Below, in pieces: positions 1 to 9,824 of a DNA stretch of 10,204 nucleotides. The notes beneath the pieces were generated by a model. It did no database searches and was not told where the DNA came from. It was given only the letters and a program-made list of their open reading frames with translations. How positions within the stretch are numbered: the first letter of the stretch is position 1; each line of letters starts with the position of its first letter. Both the position numbers and the translations under genes were made by a program. The stretch comes from a virus. The stretch lies in UHGV virus genome UHGV-1667404; one strand, given 5' to 3'.

Positions 1-434
1 TGGTTATCTGCATCATCGTCTGCCTGTCATGGGCTGTTAATCATTACCGTGATAACGCCATCGCCTACAAAGAACAGCGCGACAAAAATGCCAGAGAACT
101 GAAGCTGGCGAACGCGGCAATTACTGACATGCAGATGCGTCAGCGTGATGTTGCTGCGCTCGATGCAAAATACACGAAGGAGTTAGCTGATGCGAAAGCT
201 GAAAATGATGTTCTGCGTGATGATGTTGCCGCTGGTCGTCGTCGGTTGCACATCAAAGCAGTCTGTCAGTCAGTGCGTGAAGCCACCACCGCCTCCGGCG
301 TGGATAATGCAGCCTCCCCCCGACTGGCAGACACCGCTGAACGGGATTATTTCACCCTCCGGGAACGACTGGTAATGATGCAGGCCCAACTTGAAGGTGC
401 TCAGCAATACATAACCGAGCAGTGTTTAAAGTAA
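1..434 (+). CDS. Rz: Rz i-spanin (inner-membrane spanin subunit of the lysis cassette), 5'-truncated at the window edge
   Basis: The frame is open from base 3 and reads [91 protein letters not shown]...QYITEQCLK, stop 432-434. This matches the lambda Rz sequence as I recall it, including the TM segment and coiled-coil periplasmic domain. The ORF-track start at 129 is an internal Met; the true start lies upstream of the window. Equivalent to rzpR in Rac-type prophages. Confidence 0.9.
190..375 (+). CDS. Rz1: Rz1 o-spanin (outer-membrane lipoprotein), entirely embedded in the +1 frame of Rz
   Basis: 61-aa product [24 protein letters not shown]...[21 protein letters not shown] has a lipoprotein signal peptide with lipobox LVVVG|C followed by a proline-rich mature part, typical of lambda Rz1. 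AAGGAG at 176-181 sits 8 nt upstream of ATG 190. Equivalent to rzoR in Rac-type prophages. Confidence 0.88.
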
Positions 435-514: not shown

Positions 515-560
515 ATACAGTATAATCATAATATTGCAGTAAGGTGGTTATAATTGAAAG
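515..560 (+). promoter_or_regulatory. Candidate sigma70 -10 elements upstream of trkG (TATAAT at 521-526 and 549-554); no convincing -35
   Basis: Two perfect TATAAT hexamers lie in the AT-rich 435-571 intergenic region. AT-rich DNA yields such hexamers by chance and no good TTGACA is found at 17 +/- 1 bp, so this is only a weak prediction. Confidence 0.2.
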
Positions 561-571
561 AATATTTAGAT

Positions 572-2029
572 ATGAATACATCTCATGTAAGAGTTGTTAC
601 TCATATGTGTGGGTTCCTGGTTTGGCTCTATAGTCTTTCAATGTTGCCACCAATGGTTGTAGCATTGTTTTATAAAGAAAAAAGCCTGTTCGTTTTCTTT
701 ATAACTTTCGTTATATTTTTTTGCATTGGTGGCGGAGCGTGGTATACAACTAAGAAATCTGGCATTCAATTACGTACCCGTGATGGGTTTATTATAATTG
801 TAATGTTTTGGATTTTGTTTTCTGTTATTAGTGCATTCCCTTTATGGATTGACTCAGAACTTAATTTAACGTTCATTGATGCTCTGTTTGAAGGGGTTTC
901 TGGAATAACAACAACAGGAGCAACTGTAATTGATGATGTTAGTTCATTACCTCGGGCATATTTGTACTATCGGTCACAGTTAAATTTTATAGGTGGTTTA
1001 GGAGTTATTGTTCTGGCGGTTGCTGTATTGCCATTATTGGGTATTGGTGGTGCAAAGCTTTATCAGTCAGAAATGCCGGGGCCATTTAAGGATGACAAAC
1101 TCACTCCCCGCCTGGCCGATACGTCACGGACACTGTGGATAACTTATTCTTTATTAGGTATTGCTTGTATTGTCTGTTATAGACTTGCAGGAATGCCTTT
1201 GTTTGATGCTATTTGTCACGGGATTTCCACAGTTTCGCTTGGTGGTTTCTCAACTCATAGCGAGAGTATCGGATATTTTAATAACTATTTGGTTGAGCTG
1301 GTGGCTGGTTCTTTTTCCCTGCTATCGGCTTTCAACTTCACTCTTTGGTATATTGTTATTAGCAGGAAAACGATAGAACCTTTAATCAGAGATATTGAAC
1401 TTCGTTTCTTTCTGTTAATAGCCTTAGGGGTGATCATTGTTACCTCTTTCCAGGTCTGGCATATAGGTATGTATGACTTGCATGGAAGTTTTATTCATTC
1501 GTTTTTTCTTGCCAGCTCCATGCTCACTGATAATGGTTTAGCTACGCAGGATTATGCAAGTTGGCCCACGCACACGATAGTGTTTTTGCTGTTGTCAAGT
1601 TTCTTTGGGGGATGTATAGGTTCAACTTGTGGTGGAATTAAGTCACTTCGATTTCTTATACTTTTCAAACAAAGCAAACACGAGATAAATCAGCTTTCTC
1701 ATCCCAGAGCGTTGTTGAGTGTAAATGTAGGAGGGAAGATAGTTACAGATCGTGTAATGAGGTCTGTATGGAGTTTCTTTTTTCTTTATACTCTCTTCAC
1801 GGTGTTTTTTATACTGGTGTTAAATGGTATGGGATATGATTTTCTTACATCATTTGCAACAGTGGCTGCATGTATTAATAATATGGGATTAGGTTTTGGG
1901 GCTACTGCATCGTCATTCGGAGTGCTTAATGACATTGCAAAATGTTTAATGTGCATAGCTATGATTCTTGGTCGCCTTGAAATTTATCCTGTTATTATAT
2001 TGTTTTCAGGTTTTTTTTGGCGCTCCTAA
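572..2029 (+). CDS. trkG: TrkG/TrkH-family potassium uptake membrane protein (cargo gene)
   Basis: 485-aa polytopic membrane protein from ATG 572 (MNTSHVRVVTHMCGFLVWLYSL...). It shows four pore-loop-like glycine motifs typical of the Trk/Ktr/HKT superfamily (SGITTTGATV, SLGGFSTHS, MLTDNGLATQ, NNMGLGFGATAS). From memory the sequence matches E. coli TrkG, which is encoded in the Rac prophage. An in-frame TTG at 554 with GGTGG at 543-547 is an alternative start. The gene is visibly much more AT-rich than its flanks. Confidence 0.92.
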   Translation: MNTSHVRVVTHMCGFLVWLYSLSMLPPMVVALFYKEKSLFVFFITFVIFFCIGGGAWYTTKKSGIQLRTRDGFIIIVMFWILFSVISAFPLWIDSELNLTFIDALFEGVSGITTTGATVIDDVSSLPRAYLYYRSQLNFIGGLGVIVLAVAVLPLLGIGGAKLYQSEMPGPFKDDKLTPRLADTSRTLWITYSLLGIACIVCYRLAGMPLFDAICHGISTVSLGGFSTHSESIGYFNNYLVELVAGSFSLLSAFNFTLWYIVISRKTIEPLIRDIELRFFLLIALGVIIVTSFQVWHIGMYDLHGSFIHSFFLASSMLTDNGLATQDYASWPTHTIVFLLLSSFFGGCIGSTCGGIKSLRFLILFKQSKHEINQLSHPRALLSVNVGGKIVTDRVMRSVWSFFFLYTLFTVFFILVLNGMGYDFLTSFATVAACINNMGLGFGATASSFGVLNDIAKCLMCIAMILGRLEIYPVIILFSGFFWRS

Positions 2030-2166: not shown

Positions 2167-2958
2167 ATGAGCGAGAAATTAAAGATAGTCTATCGCCCAT
2201 TACAAGAATTGTCACCGTATGCGCACAACGCCAGGACGCACAGCCCTGAGCAGGTGGCACAACTGGTAGAAAGTATTAAGCAATTCGGCTGGACTAATCC
2301 GGTGCTGATTGACGAAAAGGGCGAAATTATTGCGGGTCACGGTCGTGTTATGGCGGCTGAAATGCTCAAAATGGATTCTGTTCCGGTCATTGTTCTGTCT
2401 GGCCTGACGGATGAGCAGAAAAAGGCGTACCGCCTGGCAGATAATCGCCTGCCGATGAATGCTGGCTGGGATGAAGATCTGTTGCGGATGGAGCTGTCGG
2501 ACCTAATCAATGCTGATTTTGATGTCTCCCTGACAGGCTTCATCCCGACAGAAATTGATGAACTGTTGACGGATGTTTTGCCCGGTACAGGAAATGAGGA
2601 GGAGCCGTATACGACGAAAATTGATACGCCTGTTTATGAGCCGTCGGGCGGTAAACCGGATATCAGTGAACTGTACGACGATACGAAAACTCAGGAGCTG
2701 ATCAGCCGGATACGTTCGGCGTCCCTTGAGCCTGATATTGAGAAATTCCTCCTGTGTGCGGCAGAACGTCACACGGTGTTTAATTTCAGCAGAATTGCGG
2801 ACTATTACGCTCACGCCCCCTCTGAAATTCAGTGTTTTTTCGAGGAGTCGGCGCTGGTGATCATTGATTATCAGCAGGCTATTGAAAATGGATTTGTCCG
2901 GATGACGCAGCGCATGGTGGAGATCATGCATGGTGGTGAGGAGGAGGAATATGCGTGA
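2167..2958 (+). CDS. ParB/Srx-like nuclease-domain protein (ParB N-terminal domain), phage accessory protein
   Basis: The N-terminus KIVYRPLQELSPYAHNARTHSPEQVAQLVESIKQFGWTNPVLIDEKGEIIAGHGRVMAAEMLKMDSVPVIVL follows the ParB N-terminal pattern (beta strand, NARxH-type box, G-rich helix, GxxR box in place of GERR). The C-terminal half is acidic with no motif I recognise. AAGG sits 5 nt upstream of ATG 2167. From memory the corresponding Rac gene in K-12 is the short remnant ynaK. Confidence 0.8.
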   Translation: MSEKLKIVYRPLQELSPYAHNARTHSPEQVAQLVESIKQFGWTNPVLIDEKGEIIAGHGRVMAAEMLKMDSVPVIVLSGLTDEQKKAYRLADNRLPMNAGWDEDLLRMELSDLINADFDVSLTGFIPTEIDELLTDVLPGTGNEEEPYTTKIDTPVYEPSGGKPDISELYDDTKTQELISRIRSASLEPDIEKFLLCAAERHTVFNFSRIADYYAHAPSEIQCFFEESALVIIDYQQAIENGFVRMTQRMVEIMHGGEEEEYA

Positions 2959-3883
2959 TGATTTTTGCGCCTTTATTCTGACTCACGGGCGACCGGACAA
3001 AGTTCTGACTTACCGGACGTTGCGTCGTGCTGGCTATACCGGGAAAATTTTTATCGTTGTTGATGATGAAGATAAGACACGGAATCAGTACATGGCTGAA
3101 TTTGGTGAACAGGTGCTGGTGTTTTCCAAAGCCGATATCGCCAGTCGTTTTGACGAAGCCGATAATTTCTGTGACCGCCGCTCAATTTTTTACGCCCGTA
3201 ATGCCTGTTTCGACCTGGCAAAACTGGTCGGGTGTAAATACTTCATTCAGCTCGATGATGATTATCACGAGTTCCAGTTTCGGGTGGATCGCAACTATGA
3301 CCAGGCCTATTTTCCGATAAGGAAACTGGATGCGATCCTTTCTGAAATGCTGGCGTACTACGAATCAATACCTGCTCTTTCCATCGCTATGTCGCAGGGC
3401 GGGGATTTTCTTGGTGACAATGGCGGCCATGCTTCGTGGGTGAAACGCAAGGCAATGAACAGCTTTATCTGTTCGGTTGATCGACCGTTCTCATTCATGG
3501 GGCGCATTAACGAGGATGTGAATACGTACACGAATCTCGGTCGCTGTGGTGAATTGTTTATGACGATCGGTGCTGTCCAGTTAGGGCAGAAACAGACGCA
3601 GAAAAACAGCGGCGGAATGACCGAGCTGTATCTGGATTCCGGAACCTACGTTAAAAGTTTTTACTCCGTCATGTATGCGCCGTCGTGCGTAAAAATCTCA
3701 CTGATGGGTGCCAGCCATAAACGCATTCACCATCAGGTCACCTGGAACAACGCTGCAGTAAAAATCCTTCACGAAAAATACAGGAAGAAGACACCCTGCA
3801 TATCAATGGGGGTGACAAATGATTCCGTATTCGAAAGTCGAGTCTCTGGCAGCGTGCCGGATGACTGCACAACAAATCGCTGA
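2951..3883 (+). CDS. Hypothetical protein with GT-A-like (nucleotide-diphospho-sugar transferase) N-terminal motifs; function unknown
   Basis: Strong RBS GAGGAGGAGG (2938-2947) directly upstream of ATG 2951; the start overlaps the ParB-like stop (ATGCGTGA), indicating translational coupling. N-terminus MRDDFCAFILTHGRPD...GKIFIVVDDEDK...KYFIQLDDDYHEF has the spacing of GT-A strand1 / DD / DxD motifs. No SAM-binding (FxGxG, DPPY) or P-loop motif, and no obvious TM segments. The family assignment is inference from motif spacing only. Confidence 0.6.
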   Translation: MRDDFCAFILTHGRPDKVLTYRTLRRAGYTGKIFIVVDDEDKTRNQYMAEFGEQVLVFSKADIASRFDEADNFCDRRSIFYARNACFDLAKLVGCKYFIQLDDDYHEFQFRVDRNYDQAYFPIRKLDAILSEMLAYYESIPALSIAMSQGGDFLGDNGGHASWVKRKAMNSFICSVDRPFSFMGRINEDVNTYTNLGRCGELFMTIGAVQLGQKQTQKNSGGMTELYLDSGTYVKSFYSVMYAPSCVKISLMGASHKRIHHQVTWNNAAVKILHEKYRKKTPCISMGVTNDSVFESRVSGSVPDDCTTNR

Positions 3884-4070
3884 CGTTCTGGATGTTGATC
3901 TGAACCGACTGAAAGAAAATCGGGAAGCAATGACAGATTTTTATGCGGCCATCCGTAAGGGCAGAGCGAAAGGTGAAGCCGAGTTACGAGCGGCATTGTT
4001 TAAGCTTGCCAGAAAAGGGGATGCCTTTGCTCTGCGCGAACTACTCAGGGTGGATAAAAATCAGGACTAA
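3819..4070 (+). CDS. Small HTH-containing protein (83 aa), possibly a packaging-associated DNA-binding protein
   Basis: ATG 3819 preceded by GGGGTGA. The product contains an HTH-like segment (MTAQQIADVLDVDLNRL) and a basic helical tail. It overlaps the 3' end of the upstream gene by 65 nt in another frame, and its stop at 4068-4070 lies 3 nt before the terS ATG. An internal ATG at 3861 is an alternative start. The overlap lowers confidence. Confidence 0.5.
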   Translation: MIPYSKVESLAACRMTAQQIADVLDVDLNRLKENREAMTDFYAAIRKGRAKGEAELRAALFKLARKGDAFALRELLRVDKNQD

Positions 4071-4073
4071 CTG

Positions 4074-5168
4074 ATGAGCAGACCGGACTGGGGGGCGTTG
4101 CAGCAGGAGTATATTGCTGAATACACCCGCTCCGGTATATCTCCGGTGGCATGGTGTGAAGCAAGGGGACTGAATTACGCAACAGCCCGTCGTTACATCA
4201 AAAAAACTCCGAAAAATGCGCAGACAGAAATGTGCAAAACTGCGCAAAAAAGTGCGCAGAAAAAATCTGCGCAGACTGCACAAAAGCGGAACGAAAAATC
4301 TCAGGAAAAAAAGCCAGTATTCGATGCGGGCCTGAATGAGGGCGACGCGGAGGAATTTTCGTTCTGTCCCGATGAATTCGGCATTTCTGACCAGCAGGCT
4401 AAGTTTGCGATGCTTGTTGCTCAGGGTAAAAAGCCGACAGAGGCGTACCGACTAGCCGGTTATGAGGGGCAAGGTGCGACAGCTAACAGCAACGCCAGTC
4501 GTATGCTTAGAAATGCCAGGGTTTTTCGCGCTATCAGCTACTTCCGCAATCAGTACCAGAAACGCTATACCGCAGACCTGGATTTACTAGTGAGTCAGTT
4601 GATGGCTATTGTCCTGGCCGACCCCAATCAGCTTGCACAATTTCGCCGTGTTAACTGCCGTTATTGCTGGGGCGAGAATCATCTCTACCAGTGGCGCGAT
4701 ATAGCAGAATTCGACAAGGCAGCGGCGCAGGCTTCCAGAGATGGCAAACCCGAACCGGAATATGGAGGCCTCGGCTTTGTTGATAACGCCATACCCAATC
4801 CGGACTGCCCGAAGTGCTGCGGTGAGGGAACGGGACAGCTTTATATGGCTGATACCACTCTGCTTGATGGGGATGCGCGGCAATTATATGCAGGGGCAAA
4901 ATTCGGAAAATTCGGCGTTGAGATCCTGCTGGAGGATAAGGCTGCCGCCCGGCGTGAATTGTTGCGTTTGTTTTCTGCTGGCGGGGCTTTATGTGCAGAT
5001 AAACGGCTACAGGAACTGGAAATTGAACGGCGCAGAATGGAAAACCAGAAGCTGCGCAAAGAGATCGAAACGGTGGAAGATAATGAACATCCCCAGCCTG
5101 TGGCGATCAATATTAATGTGGTTGATGCCAGAGTAAGGAGTGATGAAGATGATCTCTCCGACGCTTAA
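4074..5168 (+). CDS. terS: Terminase small subunit (P27/Terminase_2-like core) with N-terminal HTH, low-complexity linker and C-terminal Cys-rich extension
   Basis: AGGA at 4063-4066 sits 7 nt before ATG 4074. Residues ~105-160 (QQAKFAMLVAQGKKPTEAYRLAGYEGQGATANSNASRMLRNARVFRAISYFRNQ) match the P27-family TerS signature (F...G...eAy..AGY....A...asrLL.n..V...I). N-terminal HTH-like GISPVAWCEARGLNYATARRYIKK. C-terminal CRYC...CPKCC motif and a coiled-coil tail. Lies immediately upstream of, and overlaps, the large terminase gene. Confidence 0.8.
   Translation: MSRPDWGALQQEYIAEYTRSGISPVAWCEARGLNYATARRYIKKTPKNAQTEMCKTAQKSAQKKSAQTAQKRNEKSQEKKPVFDAGLNEGDAEEFSFCPDEFGISDQQAKFAMLVAQGKKPTEAYRLAGYEGQGATANSNASRMLRNARVFRAISYFRNQYQKRYTADLDLLVSQLMAIVLADPNQLAQFRRVNCRYCWGENHLYQWRDIAEFDKAAAQASRDGKPEPEYGGLGFVDNAIPNPDCPKCCGEGTGQLYMADTTLLDGDARQLYAGAKFGKFGVEILLEDKAAARRELLRLFSAGGALCADKRLQELEIERRRMENQKLRKEIETVEDNEHPQPVAININVVDARVRSDEDDLSDA
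4217..4282 (+). repeat. Array of six palindromic TGCGCA-type hexamers (TGCGCA x4, TGTGCA, TGCACA), each followed by an A-rich tract, spaced 9-15 bp; candidate pac / TerS-binding site inside terS
   Basis: Hexamers start at 4217, 4231, 4241, 4253, 4268 and 4277. The region encodes the low-complexity linker KNAQTEMCKTAQKSAQKKSAQTAQK, suggesting DNA-level constraint. Pac sites of P22- and SPP1-type phages lie in or next to terS. The repeat is seen directly; the function is inferred. Confidence 0.5.
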
Positions 5169-6450
5169 TGTGCCTCAGGCGCGATTTCTTTCAATGCCCC
5201 ATAAATTTAAAGCCTATATTGCTGGTTTTGGCTCGGGCAAAATATGGGTTGGGTGTGGCGGCATATGCAAGGGGATTTGGGAGCATCCAGGTATAAATCA
5301 GGGATATTTTGCGCCAACGTATCCCCAAATTCGCGATATTTTTTACCCTACAGTAGAAGAAGTTGCTGCTGACTGGGGATTGAACGTAAAAATTAATGAG
5401 GGAAATAAAGAGGTTCACTTTTATTACGGACGCCAGTATCGGGGAACCACTATCTGCAGATCGATGGAGAAGCCACAAACGATCGTCGGTTTCAAAATTG
5501 GTAATGCGTTGGTGGATGAACTGGACATTTTGCCGAAGGAAAAAGCCAGAACGGCGTGGCGCAAGATAATTGCACGTATGCGTTATAAGATTGATGGACT
5601 TCGCAACGGTATTGACGTTACAACCACGCCGGAAGGATTCAAATTTGTCTACGAGCAGTTTGTTAAAGCCGTGCGTGAAAAAACAGAGCTGGCCTCACTG
5701 TATGGTCTGGTGCAGGCATCTACTTTCGATAATGAAAAGAACCTGCCAGCAGATTACATTCCTTCGCTTCTTGAATCATACCCTCCAGAGCTGATTAAAG
5801 CCTATCTTCGAGGACAGTTTACTAACCTGACAAGTGGTACTGTTTACCATCAGTTTGACCGGAAACTGAATAATTGCGAAGAAGTGGAGCAGCCAGGGGA
5901 GCCGATTTATATTGGGATGGATTTTAACGTTGGAAAGATGGCGGGAATCGTCCATGTGCTGCGTTTGGGGCTTCCATGTGCGGTAACTGAAATCATCAAT
6001 GCCTACGATACGCCGGATATGATCCGCATCATTAAAGAACGCTTCTGGCTGTATGATGGGAATGATTACCGGAAAGTGAGGGAAATTTATATTTATCCAG
6101 ATGCTTCCGGGGATTCCAGAAAATCAAGTAACGCAAGTACGACGGATATAGCCCAGCTTAAGCAGGCTGGTTTTAACGTTGTGGTGAACAGCTCGAACCC
6201 GCCAGTAAAAGATCGCGTTAACTCAATGAATGCAATGTTCTGCAATGCCAATGGTGAGCGTCGCTATAAAGTTAATGTGAAGCGTTGCCCGTTATATGCC
6301 GAATCTCTGGAGCAACAGGTCTGGGATGAGAAGGGGGAGCCTGATAAAAAATCTGGCAATGATCACCCGAATGATGCCGGAGGTTATTTCATCGTTAAGC
6401 AATTCCCTATTGTCAAACCGACCGGAAGAGTCACATCACTTCGGATTTAA
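5143..6450 (+). CDS. terL: Terminase large subunit (ATPase + nuclease)
   Basis: N-terminal deviant Walker A YIAGFGSGKIWVGCGG, mid-protein LVDELDIL (Walker B-like), and a C-terminal RNaseH-like nuclease region (IYIGMDFNVGK ... IYPDASGD ... DHPNDAGGY). AGGAG at 5135-5139; possible starts are GTG 5140 (ORF track), ATG 5143 or ATG 5149. Overlaps the terS 3' end. Confidence 0.87.
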   Translation: MKMISPTLNVPQARFLSMPHKFKAYIAGFGSGKIWVGCGGICKGIWEHPGINQGYFAPTYPQIRDIFYPTVEEVAADWGLNVKINEGNKEVHFYYGRQYRGTTICRSMEKPQTIVGFKIGNALVDELDILPKEKARTAWRKIIARMRYKIDGLRNGIDVTTTPEGFKFVYEQFVKAVREKTELASLYGLVQASTFDNEKNLPADYIPSLLESYPPELIKAYLRGQFTNLTSGTVYHQFDRKLNNCEEVEQPGEPIYIGMDFNVGKMAGIVHVLRLGLPCAVTEIINAYDTPDMIRIIKERFWLYDGNDYRKVREIYIYPDASGDSRKSSNASTTDIAQLKQAGFNVVVNSSNPPVKDRVNSMNAMFCNANGERRYKVNVKRCPLYAESLEQQVWDEKGEPDKKSGNDHPNDAGGYFIVKQFPIVKPTGRVTSLRI

Positions 6451-6452
6451 TT

Positions 6453-7859
6453 ATGGCTGATATATCAACACCCAACCTCGACTATAACGATATGCTGGAG
6501 GCGTGGGATATTAACGACGCACTGATGGGCGGTACGCTTGAAATGCGCAGGCAGGGGGAAAATTATCTCCCAAAATGGCCTAACGAAGATGAAGACGCTT
6601 ATAAAAAACGCCTGTCTGTGGCTACGCTACTTCCTGTGTATGAAGAAAGCATCAAGCAAAATATTGGGCGCATATTTGCAGAGCCGACAGTATTGAGTGA
6701 GGAAACGCCGGCAAAAATCAGGGAATATGCAGAAAATATCGACATGGAGGGGAGCCGACTGGATGTGTGGGCGCAGCAATTTTTCAGCCTCGCATTTCAG
6801 TATGGTGTGGCACATGCGCTGGTGGACTATCCACGAACGGATATGAAAGAGATTCGTACAAAAGCCGATGAAAACGCGACCGGTGGTCGTCCGTACGTTA
6901 CGATGCTGAATCCACGCCAGGTTATTGGATGGAAATCGAAAGTTGAAAAAGGGAAAGTTGTTCTCACTGATTTGCGTATAAAAGAGGTCATCATTATTGA
7001 TGGTGATGATTTCGGGCAGAAGAAGGTGGAGCAGATCCGCCATATTATGCCCCGTCGAGTTGAAATTTATCGACGTAGCGAAGGCACTAATGGCGAATCT
7101 GTCTGGACGCTTCATGAGTCATGGAATACCAGCCGTGATGATATTCCTCTGGTAACACTGTACACGAAGAAAACAGGATTTATGCGTGGTACACCGCCAT
7201 TGCTTAATCTTGGCTTGCTGAATATCAAGCACTGGCAAAGCCAGAGCGAGCAGGACAATATTCTTCATGTTGCCCGCGTTCCATTGCTGGTGGCCTACGG
7301 GCTGGACAGGAATGAAGAACTGACGGTTGGTGCATCCACCGCTACGATTTTTGAGGACAGAACAAAAAATGGCCTCGAATATGTTGAACATAGTGGCGCA
7401 GCGATAGAATCTGGCGAAACATCACTTGAGAAGCTGGAAAATCAGATGCGTCATGCCGGCGCTAAACTTCTGCGTGCTGAAAATACATCCACCAAATCTG
7501 TTGATCAGACTAATGAAGAGCGAATGCAGGAAAACTCGCCGCTTTATACAATGGCGAACTCCCTCGAAGATGCCCTCGATAATATTCTCCAGATAATGGC
7601 GGAATGGATCGGAGAGAGTTGCGGTGGCAATGTGGATGTGCGCACTGAACTGGATGTATCTGCCCAGGTGTTTGACTCATCCTCCGCGCTGGCTGTTCAG
7701 TCATTGCGTCAGGGCGGTGATATACGTCAGATTGATGCGGTTCGGGTGTTGCAGGCGTTGAAATTTATCGATCAGGATTCCCGTCCAGAGGAAGTGATCG
7801 ATGAATTAAAAAATCAGAGTGTAATGCTGATGGAAATCAATGATGCAAACCGTGAATGA
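6453..7859 (+). CDS. Portal protein (probable; DUF4055-like family from memory)
   Basis: 468-aa ORF starting 2 nt after the terL stop and followed by a Mu-F-like gene, which is the canonical position of the portal gene. The size fits. No specific motif was verified, so the call rests on synteny and general character. Confidence 0.7.
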   Translation: MADISTPNLDYNDMLEAWDINDALMGGTLEMRRQGENYLPKWPNEDEDAYKKRLSVATLLPVYEESIKQNIGRIFAEPTVLSEETPAKIREYAENIDMEGSRLDVWAQQFFSLAFQYGVAHALVDYPRTDMKEIRTKADENATGGRPYVTMLNPRQVIGWKSKVEKGKVVLTDLRIKEVIIIDGDDFGQKKVEQIRHIMPRRVEIYRRSEGTNGESVWTLHESWNTSRDDIPLVTLYTKKTGFMRGTPPLLNLGLLNIKHWQSQSEQDNILHVARVPLLVAYGLDRNEELTVGASTATIFEDRTKNGLEYVEHSGAAIESGETSLEKLENQMRHAGAKLLRAENTSTKSVDQTNEERMQENSPLYTMANSLEDALDNILQIMAEWIGESCGGNVDVRTELDVSAQVFDSSSALAVQSLRQGGDIRQIDAVRVLQALKFIDQDSRPEEVIDELKNQSVMLMEINDANRE

Positions 7860-8955
7860 ACGGCTGCGTGATGAATCAATTGCTCATGCAGTCTGGATAT
7901 CCCGCTATAGCACTGGCGTGGCTGCCAGAATGGTGAAAATACTGAATGACAGCGATGCGGAACTTACTGCTCGCCTGCTGATAGCACTGGACAGCCTCGA
8001 TCCAGGTAATTTTACCGTTAAGCGCCTGGAGTCACTTCTGGCGAGCGTCAGAAAGGTTAACCGCACTGCTATTAACAGCATGTTTACCAGTCTCTCCGGA
8101 GAGCTGAACGAGCTGGCAATTTATGAGGCTGGTTATCAGTTAAGTCTGTTTGATTCTATGCTACCTGATTTTGTTGCTGATGTTCACCCTCTGGTTGGTA
8201 TCTCTCCTGATGCACTTTATGCCGCTGCAATGGCGCGACCATTCCAGGGACGACTGCTCAGTGAGTGGGCCTCAGATCTTGAGGCGGATCGGCTCAGACG
8301 CATAACAAATACAGTGCGTCAGGGTTTTTTGCTGGGGGATACCAATGAGCAGATCGCAAGAAAAATTCGGGGACATGTCAGTAAGGGATTTCAGGATGGT
8401 GCATTGCAGATGAGCCGGGCTAATGCGGCCAGCATTGCAAAAACAGCGGTTGGACATCTTGCTGCTACTGCCCGTGAGAGTTTTGCCAGCGCGAATAATG
8501 ATTTGATTAAGGGTAAGCAATGGTTATCAACGCTTGATAATCGTACTACGCCACAATGTCGAATCAGGGATCGCCTCAAATATACGCTGAATAATAAACC
8601 TGTAGGTCACAGCGTGCCTTATTTGCAGGGGCCGGGAAAAATTCATTTCTGCTGCCGCTCAACGGAAACGTTCATTCTGAAATCAGCGAAGGAACTGGGT
8701 ATTGATGTTCGCGATATTTCCCCGGCTGAGCGGGCCAGCATGGATGGCGTGGTGGCCGGAGATACAACCTACAGGGAATGGTTTTTGCGTCAGCCTTACA
8801 CCAGACAAAAACAGATTGTGGGGGAAACCCGAGCAAAGCTGATTCGGGATGGTGGTATGTCGCCAGATGAATTTTACACCGATAAAGGCGAATGGCTGAC
8901 GCTGAAGCAGCTCCGTGAGCGTGATGCACAGGTATTCAGAAAAGCAGGGATTTAA
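7840..8955 (+). CDS. Head morphogenesis protein, Phage Mu F / SPP1 gp7 family (minor head protein)
   Basis: Contains the characteristic Mu-F-like motif LSTLDNRTTPQCRIRDRL plus a downstream HFCCRS. Its start overlaps the portal stop by 20 nt. Position after the portal gene is typical. Confidence 0.82.
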   Translation: MMQTVNERLRDESIAHAVWISRYSTGVAARMVKILNDSDAELTARLLIALDSLDPGNFTVKRLESLLASVRKVNRTAINSMFTSLSGELNELAIYEAGYQLSLFDSMLPDFVADVHPLVGISPDALYAAAMARPFQGRLLSEWASDLEADRLRRITNTVRQGFLLGDTNEQIARKIRGHVSKGFQDGALQMSRANAASIAKTAVGHLAATARESFASANNDLIKGKQWLSTLDNRTTPQCRIRDRLKYTLNNKPVGHSVPYLQGPGKIHFCCRSTETFILKSAKELGIDVRDISPAERASMDGVVAGDTTYREWFLRQPYTRQKQIVGETRAKLIRDGGMSPDEFYTDKGEWLTLKQLRERDAQVFRKAGI

Positions 8956-8974: not shown

Positions 8975-9000
8975 AGGCTACCTTCGGGTGGCCTTTTTTA
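8975..9000 (+). terminator. Rho-independent terminator (8-bp stem with one G.U pair, UUCG tetraloop, 6-T run)
   Basis: AGGCTACC (8975-8982), loop TTCG (8983-8986), GGTGGCCT (8987-8994), then T-run to 8999 and A at 9000. It lies 20 nt downstream of the head-morphogenesis stop codon at 8953-8955. Confidence 0.6.
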
Positions 9001-9060
9001 TTGCTGCGATCCGGATGGTGAGCAGCGTAACTGTCGGAAGACTTAAACCAGGTACTAATA

Positions 9061-9824
9061 TGAAACTGAAAACGGTCGAGATTAACGGAAAACAATACGC
9101 AGAAATTGATACTGCTGGCCTGCCAGTTTATGTGCACGACGATGGTAAAGAAATTGGCTTCGATGCACCGCTGGCGACAAAAAAAATTACAGAGCTTAAT
9201 GGCGAGGCAAAAAATCATCGCCTGGCTAAAGAAGCTGCAGAGGAAAAACTGGCTAAGTTTGCCGCTATCGAAGACCCGAAGAAGGCGATCGAGGCACTGG
9301 AAATGCTGTCAAAAATTGACCAGAAAAAGCTGCTCGATGCGGGACAGGTTGACCAGGTTAAGGCAGAAATTACGAAAAATTTTCAGCAGCAATTAGATGA
9401 AGAAAAGCAACGCTCTCAGATGCTGGAGAAGCAGCTTTACGATTCTATGATTGGCGGTAGTTTTGCGGGTTCAAAATATATTGCCGATAAAATTGCGATC
9501 CCGGCAGATTTATTACAAGCCCGCTTCGGGCAGGCATTCAAAGTGGAAGAAGGGAGGATCGTTGCTTATGACGCTTCCGGCAACAAAATTTATTCCCGCG
9601 CGAAGCCTGGCGAACTGGCGCAGTTTGATGAGGCGCTGGAGTTCCTTGTCGAAAATTACCCTCAGAAAGACTACATCCTGAAAGCCAGTGGCAACAATGG
9701 CGGCGGCTCCCGTCCGACACAGCATGATATTGGTCAGAAAACGATGAAACGCTCTGCTTTTGATGCACTGGATGTTGCAGGTAAGCAAAACGCATTGAAA
9801 GACGGTATCACAATCGTTGATTAA
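9061..9824 (+). CDS. Putative scaffolding-like or head-assembly protein (hypothetical)
   Basis: 254 aa from ATG 9061 (MKLKTVEINGKQYAEIDTAG...). The middle is charged, helical and coiled-coil-like (AKEAAEEKLAKFAAIEDPKKAIEALEMLSKIDQKK...QQQLDEEKQRSQMLEKQ). It sits between the Mu-F-like gene and the presumed capsid region. The ORF-track start at GTG 8988 lies inside the terminator hairpin and was not used. The RBS is weak. Confidence 0.55.

Follow-up and report, generated by a model that had tools for sequence, protein, structure and literature searches.

What might be the purpose of a dense cluster of short palindromes lying within the coding sequence of a gene for a small terminase subunit? 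The question is raised by terS in the late region of a Rac-like lambdoid prophage of Escherichia coli, which makes up the stretch of 10,204 nucleotides analysed here in its entirety (hereafter the window), and in which an initial annotation had pointed to six hexamers of the TGCGCA type as a candidate pac site. A function of this kind would have to be reflected in the DNA itself, in the protein that might read it, and in the way both are distributed among related phages, and these three aspects are considered in turn.

Genomic setting and domain architecture of TerS

The packaging genes of the window follow one another in the order terS, terL, portal and a gene for a head protein resembling Mu F and SPP1 gp7 (Table 1). 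The relatives of TerL are found in siphoviruses of the K1ind1 and Jersey-like groups, and the core of TerS resembles that of F116; the K1ind1-like and Jersey-like relatives as well as F116 are generally regarded as headful packagers. Upstream, the order of the Rz, trkG-like and ParB-like genes resembles that of the Rac prophage of strain K-12, in which trkG is placed alike, and the position of the TrkG-like gene suggests that the window belongs to an intact Rac-like phage. The ParB_N gene overlaps the glycosyltransferase gene (2167-3883, plus strand) directly upstream of the terminase genes, and this pair may represent a DNA-modification module; within the window, no TET or methyltransferase gene could be found. 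The 83-aa ORF that follows matches the middle of a different TerS family (phrog_309, positions 145-218 of 319, E 8e-23) and looks like what remains of an earlier terS from before the present cassette was acquired. Ten deposited prophage-derived records from E. coli and Salmonella match the terS region at 99.6-99.8% identity. Of 5426 complete E. coli genomes, 914 contain the first 327 bases of this region, and in E. coli 7/2 (NZ_CP023820) the 5' region of the gene is 100% identical to that of the window; the 5' region is also found in prophages of many Enterobacterales.

TerS itself matches phrog_51 over its full length (E 1.7e-75), and the Pfam domain Terminase_2 (PF03592) is found at aa 122-321 (E 3.7e-8, 34.5 bits as compared to a gathering cut-off of 26.1). 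The AF2 model of the protein is based on a shallow alignment of sequences with at least 81% identity, because of which the core is unreliable and only aa 1-44 and aa 95-160 are modelled well enough to be used. For the former, three helices are predicted (pLDDT 71-79), and for the latter short helices (pLDDT 72-90) that form a second HTH-type DNA-binding region, to which a match with the TerS proteins of phrog_641 (aa 105-162) also extends. The stretch in between had been described as a linker between the HTH of TerS and its oligomerisation core. It is indeed a linker and is predicted to be disordered, but what it joins is an extra N-terminal HTH to a Terminase_2 domain with an HTH of its own. 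Both its length and its sequence differ among homologues, and, being of low confidence in the model and variable, it can tolerate residues imposed by the DNA. Further downstream, the Terminase_2 part contains an insertion in which two CxxC pairs (C195/C198 and C245/C248) are invariant; both are kept in homologues at 39-46% identity, and they give this part of a small terminase a zinc-ribbon-like look.

No family or solved structure could be assigned to the N-terminal domain by sequence searches of Pfam, NCBIfam and the PDB. In a profile comparison with hhalign, residues 6-43 of TerS align with residues 3-40 of PacA of phage P1 (N-termini of P1 and JK004; probability 93.4%, E 2.4e-7, 38 columns), and the PHROG profiles phrog_1711, which represents PacA, and phrog_370 hit each other in both directions. 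As judged from these profile matches, the N-terminal HTH of TerS is homologous to the N-terminus of PacA. The pairwise BLASTP match between the two proteins is weak (E 0.045), and phrog_1711 covers only aa 6-80 of the window protein (E 3.8e-5), the full-length match being the one to phrog_51.

Table 1. Features of the window, with positions counted from its first nucleotide
Feature	Position	Strand	Description and basis
Rz lysis protein	129-434		
TrkH/TrkG-like potassium transporter	554-2029	+	between lysis and packaging genes
ParB_N protein	2167-2958	+	phrog_620
TET-associated-type glycosyltransferase	2930-3883	+	PF20691; phrog_842, annotated glucosyl-HMC glucosyltransferase
Small ORF	3819-4070	+	83 aa
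terS, small terminase subunit	4074-5168	+	364 aa; ORF; Pfam Terminase_2; phrog_51; RefSeq name 'terminase small subunit'
Extra N-terminal PacA-like HTH	4074-4205	+	aa 1-44; hhalign, PHROG cross-hits, AF2; Arg39 codon at 4188-4190
Variable linker	4206-4352	+	aa 45-93; predicted disordered, hosts the array; AF2 pLDDT <50, variation among homologues
Hexamer array	4217-4282	.	six TGCGCA-type hexamers; encodes aa 48-70; proposed TerS recognition part of pac
Hexamer 1	4217-4222	.	TGCGCA; aaT GCG CAg, N-A-Q
Hexamer 2	4231-4236	.	TGTGCA; aTG TGC Aaa, M-C-K; decayed copy, different reading frame
Hexamer 3	4241-4246	.	TGCGCA; T-A-Q
Hexamer 4	4253-4258	.	TGCGCA; S-A-Q
Hexamer 5	4268-4273	.	TGCGCA; S-A-Q
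Hexamer 6	4277-4282	.	TGCACA; T-A-Q, Ala encoded by GCA; decayed copy
Second HTH-type DNA-binding region	4356-4553	+	aa 95-160; start of the Terminase_2 part; AF2, phrog_641, Pfam
CxxC pairs	4656-4667, 4806-4817	+	C195/C198 and C245/C248
terL, large terminase	5140-6450	+	Pfam Terminase_6N and Terminase_6C
Portal	6453-7859		
Mu F-like head protein	7840-8955		
Scaffold-like protein	8988-9824		

Conservation of the hexamers as DNA

With respect to the array itself, the six TGCGCA-like palindromes within 66 bp, four of them exact, can be read directly from the sequence, and their clustering lies beyond anything obtained by shuffling. Counted over the whole window, there are eight exact copies of TGCGCA, and four of these are packed into 57 bp; four copies per 66 bp were reached in none of 3000 dinucleotide-preserving shuffles of the window, nor were four copies reached in any of 20000 local shuffles of positions 4200-4320. 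If one mismatch is allowed, the 100-bp bin 4201-4300 contains six sites and every other bin of the window at most two. Even when the peptide aa 43-73 was kept fixed and only synonymous codons were resampled, at least four copies arose in no more than 33 of 100000 trials (p ~3e-4 for the window alone). The two imperfect hexamers, 2 and 6, are decayed members of the array and not chance look-alikes, since close E. coli alleles carry an exact TGCGCA at all six array positions, with hexamer 2 encoded there as M-R-K or V-R-K. Relative to these alleles the window allele has undergone two single-base decays, one of which replaced Arg54 by Cys.

Of the finer structure initially ascribed to the array, less could be retained. 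An A-tract (at least four A directly after the hexamer) is present for four of the six copies but not for the remaining two, and the supposed helical spacing is absent: the hexamers follow one another at 14, 10, 12, 15 and 9 bp, and their mean spacing of 12 bp is out of phase with the 10.5-bp helix. Nor does the family as a whole show such phasing, the 1192 within-array distances having no peak at 10-11 bp but only the 3-bp period of coding sequence (vector strength 0.14 at 10.5 bp versus 0.33 at 3 bp).

A search with the N-terminal 44-46 residues against one genome per species and viral contigs yielded 165 non-identical loci, which belong to Enterobacterales, Aeromonas, Vibrio and Pasteurella and have 3-10 hexamers at the same position of terS. 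The TerS proteins of Klebsiella phages and of E. coli phage PHB10 are only 39-46% identical to the window protein, and their genes contain three to six exact TGCGCA in the same place. The alignment of homologous terS genes, which had been put forward as a check on the initial proposal, thus shows the hexamers to be kept while the encoded amino acids, the reading frame and the spacing differ. The same holds for the enrichment of TGCGCA relative to its surroundings, as 115 non-identical Arg39 loci have on average 5.6 copies in the first 240 bases behind the HTH, a density of 23 per kb, whereas the density in the flanks is 0.48 per kb and thus approximately 50-fold lower. In 87 non-redundant loci of this Arg class from many genera, the median is six hexamers at the same terS position.

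All three reading frames are used by the hexamers, which are translated as X-Ala-Gln/His (412 cases), Val/Leu/Met-Arg-X (120) or Cys-Ala (26). The Ala codon in Ala-Gln/His is GCG in 93% of cases, in contrast to 46% elsewhere in the same loci, and the wobble base of the codon before the hexamer is T in 95%, as compared to a background of 25%. In the Pasteurella phage Pmp11, a second hexamer, TGCGAA, is encoded alternately as Cys-Glu and Ala-Asn. The frames, the wobble bases and the fixed-peptide resampling therefore bear out that a repeat of this kind is unlikely to have been selected for protein function alone, and in about 160 related phages the array is under selection as DNA, not as protein.

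It might still be argued that the array is a functionless by-product of protein evolution, namely of a Lys/Ala/Gln low-complexity linker that expanded recently as a unit of 12 or 36 bp was duplicated in tandem. Tandem Repeats Finder indeed reports a 36-bp unit (2.1 copies, 80% matches) as well as a 12-bp unit on this stretch, the region encodes a disordered linker, and most copies read Ala-Gln. However, the hexamers persist at 39-46% protein identity although spacers, copy number and frame differ, synonymous positions are almost fixed, and one and the same hexamer is encoded as Ala-Gln, Leu-Arg-Thr or Cys-Ala and the other as Cys-Glu or Ala-Asn. As, in addition, the divergence of the loci rules out that they are recent copies of one another, and as the window alone already exceeds what synonymous resampling would yield, a by-product of protein evolution is extremely unlikely.

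Scarcely any more credible is the assumption that the self-complementary hexamers form hairpins in RNA or in a single strand, through which translation or the stability of the mRNA would be controlled. Folding of the window array is far better than that of its shuffles (z -4.9), and on the minus strand two terminator-like hairpins are predicted at 4253-4284, but the strong fold is a consequence of TGCGCA being identical to its reverse complement. The direct TGCGAA repeats of the Lys class described below are equally conserved and show no excess folding (z +0.36), and compensatory changes keeping the pairing but not the sequence were not seen across the homologues. The terminator-like hairpins are made of hexamers and A-runs and are probably artefacts of the array, and since no promoter-like site was found near it either, a role as promoter or terminator was rejected.

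Some loci depart from the common arrangement. In Proteus and Providencia prophages (L061:1638-1792, L043:1638-1792), 9-11 TGCGCA are distributed over approximately 155 bp, the pac site of P1 comprising 161 bp. In the terS genes of the Klebsiella type and the PHB10 type (L002:1859-1880, L003:1858-1879), two further TGCGCA are found approximately 170 bp past the main array, inside a conserved 'VAQAIAQQQ' motif; the window is without such a pair, which might correspond to HEX3 of P1 as a second element of pac or else be mere conserved coding sequence. In a viral contig of E. coli (L114:1627-1728), an extra A before the array shifts the frame and leaves an ORF of 88 aa while five TGCGCA are kept, and either a pseudogene or a sequencing error in the A-run might account for this.

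Covariation with HTH residue 39 and the proposed reader

If the array is selected as DNA, the protein domain encoded next to it is a candidate for its reader, and the comparison of the 165 loci points to a single residue in that domain. Arg39 occurs together with TGCGCA in 102 loci and Lys39 together with TGCGAA/TTCGCA in 61, the remaining two being one exception and one truncated locus without array. Amongst the 44 positions of the HTH, position 39 is the most informative, accounting for 0.907 of 0.952 bits about the hexamer class. The Lys39 loci ('TAKRYIK') carry TGCGAA at the same density, often with inverted TTCGCA copies, and almost no TGCGCA. Phages with Lys39 include Klebsiella phage RothC and the Yersinia phage vB_YenM_29.18. 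The exception, L212:1381-1487, has Lys39 ('TAKRHIKG') in an otherwise divergent HTH, and its array consists of four TGCGCA and one TGCGAA.

Both the Arg and the Lys class are each joined to several unrelated TerS cores (core types being set by motifs, BLAST single-linkage clustering having merged everything), which shows that HTH and array move as one cassette. The hybrid locus L236 combines a Lys-class HTH and proximal TGCGAA copies with leftover TGCGCA at the distal end. As the HTH adjoins the array, the two are inherited together, and their correlation is thus not fully independent evidence of contact; part of it could be due to common descent of two lineages rather than to direct contact. 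In the reverse direction, 120 stretches of viral contigs in which three TGCGCA lie close together were examined; 73 of them adjoin the HTH motif, and the remaining ones are mostly simple GC-rich tandem repeats together with a few arrays beside other HTH types. One of the latter, L253:1949-2581, has a different N-terminal HTH ('SNRQIAKKHGVAESTLRKRI') in a 211-aa ORF and then a TGCGCA array, so that the design may extend beyond the HTH family studied here.

Taken as a whole, the array is probably the recognition part of the pac site of this prophage, laid out on the plan of phage P1 and read by the extra N-terminal HTH of TerS. This is the best reading of the comparative data because the proven pac site of P1 has the same design, with hexamers inside pacA after the same HTH. 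The extra HTH would target TGCGCA, six copies of which are encoded in the DNA for the flexible linker right behind it. Late in infection, oligomeric TerS would set several of its tethered HTH domains on neighbouring hexamers of the concatemer, and since the hexamers are out of helical phase, binding probably wraps or bends the A-rich DNA. Bound TerS would mark the DNA as that of the phage and position TerL, the nuclease and ATPase, for a first cut near the array, from which headful packaging would proceed, in a direction that we likewise infer. The proposed specificity residue of the HTH, Arg39, probably contacts position 5 of the hexamer, Lys39 relatives using TGCGAA. With the site located inside the gene segment that adjoins its reader domain, both would be passed on as a single unit of specificity and, through recombination, be joined to different TerS cores. 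It is a real, if somewhat doubtful, possibility that the HTH and its own array form a portable cassette for packaging specificity, that its code comes close to one residue for one base, with C recognised by Arg39 and A by Lys39 at position 5 of the hexamer, and that in Enterobacterales, Aeromonas, Vibrio and Pasteurella the cassette has been exchanged between TerS cores of at least five types.

Against a pac site read by the extra HTH it may be held that the usual Terminase_2 HTH of TerS could be the pac reader. If this second, canonical HTH recognised a pac site elsewhere, the array might be bound by the N-terminal HTH for a regulatory purpose instead, i.e. in autoregulation of terS and terL or as a roadblock to late transcription or translation, and not as the start of packaging. 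The array does sit inside the gene to be regulated, and all comparative evidence for the pairing of HTH and hexamer fits any cis-acting site equally well. On the other hand, in P1 the homologous HTH of PacA together with its hexamers belongs to a proven pac site, no promoter-like site lies nearby, and the cassette is always fused to a TerS that is followed by terL, for which reasons a regulatory site is regarded as unlikely.

Alternatively, the array might be the target of another factor, such as a protein of the host or the phage, or a system of methylation or restriction directed at TGCGCA or GCGC, with the nearby ParB-like and glycosyltransferase genes as candidates. The hexamer contains GCGC, genes of a DNA-modification type are located just upstream, and pac of P1 is under control by methylation of its hexamers (PMC10028697). 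However, TGCGAA of the Lys class is neither palindromic nor does it contain GCGC, and it is the HTH and its residue 39 that the array follows from locus to locus and not the upstream genes, which differ; this renders another factor very unlikely.

Should such a cassette with its code exist, this family would constitute a natural, simple and reprogrammable system of TerS-pac recognition. It offers a short repeated target, a small separable HTH and a natural switch of specificity between Arg with TGCGCA and Lys with TGCGAA. Given the occurrence of the terS 5' region in E. coli genomes and in prophages of many Enterobacterales, the array would indicate where headful packaging starts, and with it the lateral transduction of host genes nearby, in approximately one of every six complete E. 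coli genomes. Phagemid delivery might likewise make use of the 66-bp signal as a transferable packaging tag, a purpose for which P1 pac has already been employed (PMC10028697).

Comparison with P1 and other pac systems

As in P22 and Sf6, the putative packaging signal is embedded in terS and packaging would be of the headful type. However, pac of P22 is a single asymmetric sequence of 22 bp (PMC9611059) and not a repeat array, and the TerS proteins of the P22/Sf6 type are unrelated and small, e.g. 140 aa in prophage Gally of strain LF82. The principle of a pac site within terS has been confirmed for a P22-like prophage of E. coli by a coverage peak within terS; belonging to this unrelated 140-aa TerS, the Gally peak was not accepted as direct support for the array. 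Specific binding of TerS to pac has been hard to show for P22, Sf6 and SPP1, and recognition is still described as unclear (PMC9611059). In the searchable literature, no description of TGCGCA/TGCGAA arrays or of the N-terminal domain was found, nor were packaging-end, binding or genetic data for any family member, the publications on the most closely related deposited phages included.

The TerS proteins of SPP1 and SF6 belong to the Terminase_2 family, and at pacL/pacR of SPP1, as well as at the R-sites of lambda cosB, several HTH domains of TerS occupy multiple sites on bent, A-rich DNA beside the cut made by TerL. In contrast to the array, the sites of SPP1 and lambda are longer and fewer, they lie mostly outside coding sequence or at its edge, and an extra PacA-like domain is lacking.

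The closest parallel is provided by P1, whose pac site comprises 161 bp with seven TGATCA/G repeats bound by the pacase, and in which synonymous recoding of the repeats reduced the titre of wild-type P1 approximately nine-fold (PMC10028697; primary work by Sternberg and Coulby 1987 and Skorupski et al. 1994, as summarised there). In pacA of P1, four TGATCA hexamers are found at bases 193-236 and three at bases 323-365, all downstream of the part coding for the HTH, and the annotated cleavage points lie 275-285 bases into the gene. PacA of Cronobacter phage JK004 is 70% identical to that of P1, and its gene has kept the hexamers although the encoded linker residues have diverged. The array shares with P1 the presence of several palindromic hexamers of the form TGNNCA inside the gene of the recognition subunit, shortly after the part coding for the homologous HTH, and with both P1 and JK004 the use of different reading frames by hexamers that outlast changes in the encoded residues.

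Unlike TGATCA/G in P1, the hexamer is TGCGCA or TGCGAA and contains no GATC, and accordingly Dam sites are absent, as presumably is a methylation switch. Whereas in P1 four and three hexamers flank an IHF site and the central cut region, the array forms a single cluster of approximately 66 bp; no second hexamer cluster was found within 400 bp on either side of it, and no match to the IHF consensus WATCAANNNNTTR in 3900-4700. These departures from P1 in cluster number, IHF consensus and GATC, together with the two decayed copies among the six of the window and the exception L212, count against the proposed pac function. Furthermore, homology to PacA is limited to the first approximately 40 residues, beyond which the protein is a TerS of the Terminase_2 type, accompanied by a TerL of the Terminase_6 type. 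With its single cluster, its lack of an IHF consensus and of GATC and its approximately 40 PacA-like residues, the system would thus represent a variant of the P1-type design and not a member of the PacA family, and the sequence comparisons are best read as pointing to hexamer specificities, TGCGCA and TGCGAA, that are new relative to P1-type pac sites.
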